In this document: positions 12,268 to 14,522 of the stretch, piece after piece | Layout of the letters: every line of letters begins with the position of its first letter | How positions within the stretch are numbered: the stretch's first letter is position 1 | From: Candidatus Firestoneibacteriota bacterium | GTDB lineage: Bacteria; Oederibacteriota; D2-FULL-39-29; CAIOVX01 | DNA: 28,625 nt | Direction: 5' to 3' | Assembly: GCA_037141215.1 (NCBI GenBank) | Contig: JBAXDA010000001.1 | Span: 1-28,625, forward strand | Translations under genes and position numbers: made by a program | The notes under the pieces: generated by a model | Seen by the model: only the letters and a program-made list of their open reading frames with translations | Databases searched by the model: none | Told to the model about the DNA's origin: nothing

Positions 12268-12888
12268 TTAAACGCTGAAGCCGGCCAAGACTTCCTTCTC
12301 CAGTCTTTCGGACTCTTTAAGCATTTTAGAAATTATTTCATTCTTTTCATTCTTATATTTTTCGTCTCTCAGACAGGAGAAATTTATTTTTACATTTACA
12401 TGAGCTCCTTTAAGCGCCGCCAGCGCAAAGATTGCGGCAACCGCTACATCGCTTAAAAGATATTTATTTCCCTTCTCCATCATCGGCTTGCAGAGCAACA
12501 GTGTTTTATTGCAGGCCTGCATTATTTTAAACGGCACTTCGGCCGCTTTTTTTGTGAGTTCTTCCTTCTTTTTTGTTTTTTCTTCCGCGGAAACTCCGGC
12601 TGTTTTCAGTTCTTTATTGGCCTTAGAGACCATTGAATACGCGTCAATATCTTCTTTTATCAGCGAGAGCAGCTCGTCGCGAAGAGCTTCGGACTTGAGC
12701 AGCAAGGTTTCCATCTCGCTTTCAACCGCCTTATACTTCTCGTTCCCTATGGTAAAATTGGCCGTCATGCAGTTCAGCGAGGAAGCAAGCGCCCCCACGA
12801 GCGCTGAGGCTGAACCGCCTCCAGGCGCAGGCAGTCTGGCGCTGAGGTTTTCAATAAACTTTATCAGCGGTTCATTTAAATAATTCAT
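12268..12888 (-). CDS. fchA: Methenyl-THF cyclohydrolase / formiminotransferase-cyclodeaminase C-terminal family (FchA-like)
   Basis: PAPGGGSASALVGAL, EDIDAY, AAEVP, LLSDVAVA, NVKIN. Likely start ATG 12888, overlapping the 3' end of the Fhs-like gene by 17 nt. Confidence 0.85.
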   Translation of the reverse strand: MNYLNEPLIKFIENLSARLPAPGGGSASALVGALASSLNCMTANFTIGNEKYKAVESEMETLLLKSEALRDELLSLIKEDIDAYSMVSKANKELKTAGVSAEEKTKKKEELTKKAAEVPFKIMQACNKTLLLCKPMMEKGNKYLLSDVAVAAIFALAALKGAHVNVKINFSCLRDEKYKNEKNEIISKMLKESERLEKEVLAGFSV

Positions 12889-14485
12889 TTCTGAGCCTTT
12901 CAATGGAGAATTTGCCTGTATATGAAGGCATTCTCTCGTAATCATTCGCTTCCACCTGGATAACCCCTGCCCCGGCAAGCAGTCTGACATCTCTTACCTG
13001 CAGCACCTGCGCGGAAGTTAAGCTCCTGCTGAAATAAGGAGACCTGGCAATGCAAACGGGCAAGTTATGAGCCGAACCATTGTGTTCTATATGCTCTATT
13101 TCTTTTTCGGCTTTTGCTGAGTAGACAACTTTTGCCATGCCGTAGATTTCCTTGATAATAATCTTGACTTTTTCTTTTACCGTGAGGTCGAGCTCGTAAA
13201 TGGGCTTGTAATAACTTTTTTGCGAGCGCATTATTTCCAGGACGTTTTTTACAAGTTCGATGCCGTGTTTTACGGTTGAATTCCTGGCAGGAGTGTAGCC
13301 CACCTTCACGCCAAGGTTTGAGCAATACTTGTCAATAAGTTTTATCTCGTCTTTTGTCACTTCCCTCTGCTCGCTGACATTAAGAAGCACAGGAACGCCG
13401 AATTTTTTTGCCGACTCTATGTTCCTGAGCAGAACCTGAATACCCTTTTCCAGTTCCGGCATGTTCTTTTCGAACATTTTTTCCCGCTCCGCCCCGCCGT
13501 AATAATTCAGTTCGTTGACGAAGGTATTTAACACTATCATATCCGGTTTAATGCCCGTATCCCGGAGGGTAATGTTCATAAATTTTTCAAGACTCAAGTC
13601 AACAGAGCACTCCAGCTTTACCACTACATACTCCGAAAGACTTAACGCCGTTTTTATGGCGCTGAGGTTCCCCGGGGGAAGAGCTGCCGCTGACGCCGAG
13701 ATATTCGTAAAAACCGGATCGCCCTGATTGGTCTGCATAAGATTGGGCTTGAGGTTGTCGGAGAGCATAGCCGCAAGAACATCTTCAAGTTTCAAGTCGC
13801 GTATGTGGAGCGGAGCGCCGTGCTTATTCTGTCCGACTGTTATCTTCTCGAGGCTGGACTTTAATTCTTCAAAGCTTAAGGAGAGCGCGGCAACGGCCGT
13901 TATTTCAGAATTGAGAATATGTTCAAACTTCTCCTCTTTCAGGAATCTGTTTGGTTTGTGGTTATTCATGCCTGTAAGAATGCCGGTCAGCGATTCATCG
14001 GCAAAGGCAGAAGCCCTGTTCCAGGAGATATTGAACTGCCCCGTTTCCGAGTTGCCGTCAAGCACGGAGATGTTTGAAAGATAGGCAGAAATCAGATTGT
14101 GCGCCTGCAGTATGTTGTTCAGTTCCTGGGAACGGAAAAGCACATCCTCAACGGGATATACATTCGGATTGAAATATTCGCGGATTATTGAATCAACGGT
14201 AAACCCGGGAAGACAGAGTGATGTTTTCTTCCTAAGAAGGCCAAAAGCTTCCACAAGTCCGTCGCATAAAGCGCAATTATTGCTGACCGCGCCCTTCACA
14301 TGCTGAGTCCCCGTTACTACGATAAGCTTTCCCTGCCCTGTCGTTTTAAGCTTTGAAAGAAGGGAAAACCCGAGTTTTGCGGAGTATTTACCGTTAACCT
14401 CCAGATCTTTTTTCCTAAGCCCGATTTTGGAGGCAACTTCAATAGCTGATTTCATTTTAATTTGCTTGTTTTTACCTTTTTTCAT
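12872..14485 (-). CDS. Formate-tetrahydrofolate ligase (Fhs)-like protein with degenerate catalytic motifs (probable pseudo-enzyme)
   Basis: Fhs scaffold is recognisable end to end: GKYSAK, GKLIVVT, AHNL, KPNLMQT, IKTALSLSEYVV, EKF, KKFGVP, YKPIYELDLTVKEKV, EIYG, LPVCIA, VRDVRLLAGAG. The P-loop and active-site motifs are absent. Start is 14485 or 14455. Confidence 0.85.
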   Translation of the reverse strand: MKKGKNKQIKMKSAIEVASKIGLRKKDLEVNGKYSAKLGFSLLSKLKTTGQGKLIVVTGTQHVKGAVSNNCALCDGLVEAFGLLRKKTSLCLPGFTVDSIIREYFNPNVYPVEDVLFRSQELNNILQAHNLISAYLSNISVLDGNSETGQFNISWNRASAFADESLTGILTGMNNHKPNRFLKEEKFEHILNSEITAVAALSLSFEELKSSLEKITVGQNKHGAPLHIRDLKLEDVLAAMLSDNLKPNLMQTNQGDPVFTNISASAAALPPGNLSAIKTALSLSEYVVVKLECSVDLSLEKFMNITLRDTGIKPDMIVLNTFVNELNYYGGAEREKMFEKNMPELEKGIQVLLRNIESAKKFGVPVLLNVSEQREVTKDEIKLIDKYCSNLGVKVGYTPARNSTVKHGIELVKNVLEIMRSQKSYYKPIYELDLTVKEKVKIIIKEIYGMAKVVYSAKAEKEIEHIEHNGSAHNLPVCIARSPYFSRSLTSAQVLQVRDVRLLAGAGVIQVEANDYERMPSYTGKFSIERLRNELFK

Positions 14486-14493
14486 AGGTGTTA

Positions 14494-14522
14494 AGTTTAG
14501 CATTATTACATGAAATAGTCAA
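14494..14522 (-). promoter_or_regulatory. Sigma70-type promoter for the Fhs-like-fchA-mre operon
   Basis: On the minus strand: TTGACT-N17-TAAACT with a TGn extended -10; ATG (14485) lies 8 nt after the -10 box. Confidence 0.65.

Follow-up and report, generated by a model that had tools for sequence, protein, structure and literature searches.

An intact formate-tetrahydrofolate ligase homolog that appears to lack the ligase active site and overlaps an FchA-like gene in one uncultured freshwater order

The window analyzed here, a stretch of 28,625 nucleotides from a Candidatus Firestoneibacteriota bacterium, encodes on its minus strand an intact homolog of formate-tetrahydrofolate ligase (Fhs), which we call FhsL. 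As judged by alignment, FhsL is without every recognized ligand-binding motif of the ligase, and it is under ordinary purifying selection. With its relatives, it is well supported, on sequence grounds, as a previously undescribed pseudo-enzyme family confined to one uncultured freshwater order. The strongest functional clue to FhsL is a short overlap of its gene with the next one, which encodes an FchA-like protein of the FTCD_C family. We tentatively favor, at a little short of an even chance, the reading that FhsL is a non-catalytic partner of this co-translated cyclohydrolase-type protein.

12872 to 14485, minus strand: FhsL, an Fhs-fold paralog predicted to have lost the active site of the ligase; 537 aa when counted from the conserved Met7, with alternative ATGs at 14503 and 14455

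The longest frame spans 12872-14503 (543 aa, P0001) and is uninterrupted, with zero stops and zero frameshifts. The start at 14485, Met7 of this frame, aligns with the start of all orthologs in the clade alignment; the database gene call (P0002) begins at Met17 instead. An earlier note, made from the letters of the window, had described an intact open reading frame that follows the Fhs scaffold from GKYSAK to VRDVRLLAGAG. This description holds: both strings, together with GTQHVKGAVSNN, LPGFTVDSIIREYF, NISASAAALPPG, VKLECSVDLSLEK and ARSPYF, are present in the translation, which matches Pfam FTHFS over its full length (293 bits, residues 13-530). Moreover, two independent lake metagenome runs contain the gene free of indels.

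The closest solved structures to FhsL are those of Fhs, at ~31-33% identity. An AlphaFold2 model built from a 64-sequence alignment (predicted local distance difference test score 87, predicted template-modeling score 0.89) was compared with solved structures by Foldseek. The model superposed on Fhs of Moorella and Tepidanaerobacter, the former being the comparison that the earlier note had proposed, with a template-modeling (TM) score of 0.88 and a root-mean-square deviation of ~2.5 Å over ~535 columns (5a4j, 4jim and 4jjz), and all non-Fhs structures scored at or below TM 0.26. On this model, FhsL is an Fhs paralog that retains the whole three-domain fold. It thus resembles Fhs (EC 6.3.4.3, PF01268; Moorella thermoacetica 1EG7/4JJZ, T. 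acetatoxydans 5A4J) along its full length at ~30-33% identity, and keeps its structural Gly and Pro residues and its EKF, SE, KPxxxQ and MP motifs. By contrast, the FhsL clade is shorter (526-537 aa versus ~556 aa), carries three deletions besides that of R-E-P-S-L-G, and is without the Walker A motif GEGK(T/S)T, the glycine loop, GPFAN and the aromatic pair at Moorella positions 384 and 412. FhsL also fails the NCBIfam Fhs equivalog (NF010030), scoring 283 bits where the cut-off is 652, whereas the canonical copy of the same genome scores 826.

To compare motifs, 15 members of the clade were aligned with 38 diverse canonical Fhs sequences. The segments that have changed lie, in order along the protein, as follows.

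14267 to 14314, minus strand: former Walker A/P-loop segment, residues 64-79, TGTQHVKGAVSNNCAL; variable in the clade, with one residue more than the canonical segment
14171 to 14215, minus strand: deletion of R-E-P-S-L-G and lost glycine loop KGGAAGGG, residues 97-111; modeled as a short helix
13667 to 13708, minus strand: GPFANIAHG replaced by S-x-S-x-x-x-L-P-x-G-N in the clade alignment, residues 266-279
13580 to 13621, minus strand: TEAGFGADLGAEKF replaced by VKLECSVDLSLEKF, residues 295-308; charge reversal of E to K/R, with EKF kept
13493 to 13522, minus strand: clade-specific motif F-V-N-E-L-N-x-Y-G-G in place of T-(V/I)-R-A-L-K-x-H-G-G, residues 328-337
13346 to 13381, minus strand: residues 375-386; the Phe384 position is variable and polar (Q379), followed by the clade-invariant Arg380, with Moorella numbering taken from the 4ioj alignment
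13031 to 13048, minus strand: ARSPYF in place of AKTQYS, residues 486-491; after it, the GRPxxF loop is deleted (6-7 residues)

The G-E-G-K of Walker A is present in 38/38 canonical sequences and 0/15 members of the clade, where Q, N or S takes the position of the lysine and the replacement loop holds no conserved Lys, Thr or Ser. R-E-P-S-L-G, which contains the arginine numbered 97 in Moorella by the 4ioj alignment, has been removed from all clade members by a six-residue deletion, and the glycine loop has been replaced by non-glycine residues. In the H-G-G-P-F-A-N-I-A-H-G motif, the phenylalanine found in 38/38 canonical sequences becomes S, D, T or N, an alanine becomes L, and a histidine becomes P. 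Two further residues that are invariant in the canonical set (38/38 each) have been exchanged: the glutamate of the TE motif for K or R, and the lysine of RALK for N in 15/15 clade members. The equivalent of Moorella Phe384 (FhsL position 379) is N, Y, K or Q in the clade versus F in 36 and Y in two of the canonical sequences, and that of Trp412 (FhsL position 407) is K or R in 12/15 members versus W, H or F. Another seven residues are deleted near the C-terminus. In Moorella, Arg97 reportedly contacts formyl phosphate in the formate/formyl-phosphate site, and Phe384 and Trp412 reportedly sandwich the pterin as a clamp (Radfar 2000 and Celeste 2012). The claim of the earlier note that the catalytic motifs of Fhs are replaced is therefore borne out for the P-loop, the arginine/glycine loop, GPFAN and AKTQYS, and functional equivalents of the P-loop Lys/Thr or of the FAN motif, which it said would count against it, are not conserved anywhere in the clade alignment.

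Canonical Fhs is at least 95% identical at 117 alignment columns, of which 31 are retained in the clade, 11 re-fixed, 9 deleted and 66 variable. The 11 re-fixed columns are canonical invariants switched to a new conserved residue, and 25 positions are conserved in the FhsL clade only. The clade has invariant motifs of its own: LLRKK, KEE(K/G)F, NSEL, LPxGN, FVNELNxYGG, Arg380 and KSY(F/Y)KPxY. We infer from these replacements that FhsL can no longer carry out ATP-dependent formylation of tetrahydrofolate (THF). A working ligase with an unconventional nucleotide site is scarcely credible: the full-length fold and the retained EKF, SE, D169 and MP motifs would suit it, but no clade member has the G, E, G or K of Walker A, the arginine/glycine loop is deleted, the equivalog score is less than half of the cut-off, and a canonical Fhs is already present. 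FhsL is almost certainly not a ligase.

Next, we investigated how widely FhsL occurs. Among 99 genomes of the phylum, the paralog was found in 12/12 genomes of one order, spread over three families, and nowhere else; all 12 also encode a canonical Fhs. A homolog search returned ten clusters at 40-100% identity (526-534 aa), one of which bears the NCBI label Candidatus Firestonebacteria, followed by a sharp drop to canonical Fhs at ~33%. When 1.84 billion representative proteins were searched with a profile, four full-length members and three fragments were all that came up before the score fell from 820 to 321 bits, and a wider family beyond this narrow clade was rejected since none of these representatives lay outside it. 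A search of the ESM Atlas with FhsL retrieved canonical Fhs clusters only, and in the literature we found no description of an Fhs pseudo-enzyme or Fhs-like protein family of this type.

In a phylogenetic tree, the clade is monophyletic with a support of 100, stands on a stem of ~1.2 substitutions per site, and is not nested within the canonical Fhs of the phylum. The canonical Fhs of the order groups with that of the rest of the phylum and therefore looks vertically inherited. The tree does not support a recent origin by duplication of the order's fhs, as FhsL falls outside the phylum's canonical Fhs; the long stem obscures its origin.

The ratio of nonsynonymous to synonymous substitution rates (dN/dS) for FhsL is 0.20-0.27 in the three pairs with unsaturated dS. 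The remaining pairs are synonymously saturated, as is the case between families, with proportions of synonymous and nonsynonymous differences of ~0.8 and 0.10-0.42, respectively. For one pair of loci (L006/L007), the FhsL value of 0.196 lies inside the range of nine neighboring genes (0.075-0.229), which runs from MreB (0.075), NifU (0.095), NadA (0.106), FTCD_C (0.114) and PBP2 (0.131) up to MreC (0.161), MnmA (0.211) and MreD (0.229). The gene is intact in about 17 distinct orthologs, with length and overlap conserved. Identity to the window copy across the order is 44-61% for FhsL and 50-58% for FTCD_C, and MreC, MnmA and Fmt have diverged just as fast. For canonical Fhs, identity across the order is 83-88%. 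FhsL differs from Fhs also in evolving ~4-5 times faster (path lengths of 0.69 versus 0.15 in the same genomes).

This fast evolution, and the variability of most lost canonical invariants (66/117), would suit a functionless, decaying relic, that is, a pseudogene still uninterrupted. However, the orthologs are intact at synonymous saturation, dN/dS is ~0.2 like that of the neighbors, the clade shows numerous invariant residues specific to it, and length and overlap are conserved. Barring error, a relic is already refuted by the selection data, and we give it next to no weight. The earlier note had argued from the retained frame that this was not random pseudogene decay, had called for dN/dS between orthologs, a tree and a look for a second, canonical fhs, and had proposed a candidate pseudo-enzyme. 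Its argument and its proposal have stood up well: the motif loss is common to one monophyletic clade, selection acts on all orthologs, which are intact, the fold is predicted to be kept, and a canonical fhs is present in the genome of the window and in all 11 relatives. The results do not separate the non-catalytic functions that it had listed, namely scaffold, sensor, filament or regulatory subunit.

Upon inspection of the 3' end of the FhsL gene, we noted a feature that the earlier note had not mentioned, namely its overlap with the downstream gene.

12268 to 12888, minus strand: FTCD_C-family gene (206 aa), the genome's sole member of this family; putative FchA-like methenyl-THF cyclohydrolase or cyclodeaminase
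12872 to 12888, minus strand: 17-nt overlap ATGAATTATTTAAATGA of the FhsL stop and the FTCD_C start (ATG at 12888), preceded by AAAGG

A mechanical 240-aa open reading frame (12268-12990) is over-extended because the Pfam domain, the AAAGG and the orthologs all indicate the ATG at 12888. The two genes overlap by 11-25 nt in every orthologous locus (eight metagenome contigs and all 12 of the order's genomes), and the stop/start overlap with its AAAGG implies translational coupling. The partner matches Pfam FTCD_C with 180 bits and carries the APGGGS signature (LPAPGGGSASA); its top match in the Protein Data Bank is 7vg4, a methenyl-THF cyclohydrolase (108 bits). Across the order, partners score 165-207 bits on FTCD_C, equal to a stand-alone homolog, and the partner therefore does not look degenerate.

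In the reading that we favor, THF would be formylated by the canonical Fhs encoded elsewhere in each genome, while FhsL and the FchA-like protein would be made together in matched amounts. FhsL would then probably serve as a scaffold or stabilizing subunit of the FchA-like protein; alternatively, its remodeled cleft might form a binding module for formyl- or methenyl-folate or another anionic ligand. In T. acetatoxydans, an fhs1-fchA-folD operon that encodes an active Fhs has been described (PMC3584212), and the pair therefore seems to be derived from an arrangement already known. It may thus descend from the fhs-fchA operon of acetogen-type one-carbon (C1) clusters, the ligase half having become redundant with a second fhs present and FhsL having survived because the complex was still needed. 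As in the fhs-fchA(-folD) operons of acetogens and syntrophic acetate oxidizers, an Fhs-family gene is directly followed by a gene for an FTCD_C-type cyclohydrolase. In those operons, however, Fhs is canonical, active and part of a Wood-Ljungdahl cluster, whereas FhsL appears to have lost its active site, neither folD nor the canonical fhs is located with the pair, and 11/12 genomes of the order lack acetyl-CoA synthase. No fhs-FTCD_C adjacency was seen in two canonical Clostridia loci examined.

Two other known systems offer parallels. In C1-THF synthases of the MTHFD1L type, a live synthetase (Fhs) domain is fused to a catalytically dead dehydrogenase/cyclohydrolase (FolD-like) domain. There, too, a pseudo-enzyme module of the three-step folate C1 pathway is physically linked to an active pathway neighbor, but the polarity is reversed, since in the present pair the Fhs-like protein would be the dead one, and its FTCD_C-type partner is encoded by a separate, overlapping gene. 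Prozyme-type dead paralogs, such as the trypanosomatid AdoMetDC prozyme, share with FhsL the absence of catalytic residues, purifying selection and the presence of a live paralog; the genomic coupling of FhsL, by contrast, is to a different enzyme family (FTCD_C).

A number of points weigh against a non-catalytic partner. Gene overlap shows co-expression, not complex formation, and the physical interaction is putative. Since all examples come from one order, common descent rather than selection could account for part of the synteny. The partner scores 158 bits on the NCBIfam FchA equivalog, under the cut-off of 275, and its own activity is uncertain for that reason. Folate binding by FhsL in the old way is weakened as a possibility, given that the reported pterin clamp (Phe384 and Trp412) is lost. 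With regard to expression, the gene was found in no RNA run, and one metatranscriptome gave ~80%-identity scraps from other organisms. Lastly, the newly conserved polar residues R380, K/R296, N333, E331, H135 and E190/E191 are also compatible with a new catalytic site.

The last point leads to the main rival of the partner reading, which is that FhsL is a neofunctionalized enzyme carrying out an ATP-independent reaction on folate or another substrate, with the FchA-like protein performing the adjacent step. Several observations speak for it. The 11 clade-wide re-fixed invariants include E to K/R296, K to N333, A to E331, T to F328 and G to S269; the invariant Arg380 and the mostly basic residue at the Trp412 position both lie in the old folate pocket; and EKF, S199-E200, D169, R163 and Q257 are kept. 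Furthermore, the cyclohydrolase function would otherwise be redundant with FolD (present in 11/12 genomes of the order), yet the pair is retained in 12/12. On the other hand, most former active-site columns are variable rather than re-fixed, the entire P-loop included, and FhsL holds no recognizable new cofactor or catalytic motif. We consider such an enzyme unlikely, but a serious contender.

The candidate roles that were tried against the folate and C1 gene content of the order also went unsupported, which tells against a new enzyme. Replacement of 5-formyl-THF cycloligase was rejected, as the cycloligase (PF01812) is present in 9/12 genomes, including 5/5 of high quality; formiminotransferases that moonlight, as reported by Jeanguenin et al. 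2010, had served as the analogy for such a replacement. A stand-in for formiminotransferase on the histidine/formimino route is not supported either: formiminotransferase (FTCD_N) and urocanase were each found in 0/12 genomes, and so there is no evident source of formiminoglutamate. A Wood-Ljungdahl accessory role is unlikely, with acetyl-CoA synthase (PF03598) in only 1/12 genomes. That genome (G016) carries it on contig C52, ~7 kb from folD, hence a Wood-Ljungdahl cluster may exist in one family only.

The canonical fhs never adjoins FhsL and sits in unrelated housekeeping contexts. In the genome of the window (G000:C167, L001), its neighbors encode PGA_cap and a DHOD-B-type flavoprotein subunit; this contig is 4.4 kb long and its binning is not independently verifiable, and the protein is 88% identical to the copy of a sister genus. 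In that genus (G006:C35, L030), FtsK, LolA, RodZ, DUF520 and DnaJ lie upstream, and a cupin and GDH downstream. These contexts bear on the possibility that FhsL is a prozyme-like regulatory subunit, which would hetero-oligomerize with canonical Fhs, normally a homotetramer, and modulate its activity. Dead paralogs that activate or regulate a live paralog are a common class of pseudo-enzymes, the predicted fold is fully kept, and canonical Fhs accompanies FhsL in 12/12 genomes. Nevertheless, the fixed partner of FhsL is FTCD_C and not canonical fhs, and the two Fhs-type proteins are only 25-30% identical, which makes a conserved oligomer interface doubtful. A subunit of this kind is therefore improbable.

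The order def-fmt-M48-nifU-mnmA-nadA-FhsL-FTCD_C-(PilZ)-mreB-mreC-mreD-PBP2-rodA is conserved across the bacterial order. FhsL might accordingly be imagined as a moonlighting structural or sensing protein that couples C1/folate status, or a polymerizing scaffold, to cell-wall elongation. All loci of sufficient length show the nadA-to-rodA arrangement, FTCD_C and mreB are separated in the window by only 85 nt that contain no terminator-like site, and the genes that precede mreB in outgroup genomes are unrelated. Gene order within a single order may, however, be simple inheritance; the link is not tight, PilZ genes being inserted before mreB in two of the three families; and both polymerization and contact with MreB are hypothetical. 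We regard this role as very improbable. The inserted genes number one or two (in L006, L007, L009, L011 and L013) and encode PilZ-domain proteins, which are cyclic di-GMP receptors; the family of the window has none.

A broader proposal would join several of these elements. FhsL and its FchA-like partner could form a new two-protein module on an Fhs scaffold devoid of the P-loop, acting as an ATP-independent folate/C1 enzyme or carrier with a rebuilt pocket lined by Arg and Lys, or else as a sensor of C1 status, tied to the mreBCD-PBP2-rodA cluster that it heads in every genome. This is a long shot, although not a negligible one.

Upstream of FhsL, the 170-nt spacer to nadA holds one promoter-like match.

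14494 to 14522, minus strand: promoter-like TTGACT-17-TAAACT with a TG extension, a match to consensus only

If used, this site would place the start of transcription ~2 nt before the Met7 ATG at 14485. A Shine-Dalgarno sequence is not visible, and the mRNA may be leaderless for that reason. As many promoter-like sites were found as chance alone would give.

Outside the clade, we noted six full-length Fhs-like singletons (P0148, P0176, P0194, P0211, P0242 and P0245) with partly degenerate P-loops or glycine loops, such as GERAAL, SGSGAA, WEDPTI and GEGRTT. Active-site loss may thus have happened more than once, or else these are poor gene calls. A 557-aa Fhs from the representative library (P0137) has W at many positions of invariant G (WEGKTT, WLKWWATWGWY and MPWLP), and looks like the product of an organism reading TGA as Gly (code 25) that was translated with TGA as W.

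Fhs is a textbook one-carbon enzyme, and fhs is a widely used marker gene for acetogens. Public records label FhsL proteins as formate-tetrahydrofolate ligase, and so any survey based on fhs, like any pathway reconstruction, would include a gene whose product is almost certainly no ligase. The scope of FhsL is one uncultured freshwater order. Within it, a conserved, dead FhsL would mean that the Fhs scaffold can be re-used without ATP chemistry, and FhsL with its FTCD_C partner would provide a defined protein pair for testing how folate C1 enzymes interact.

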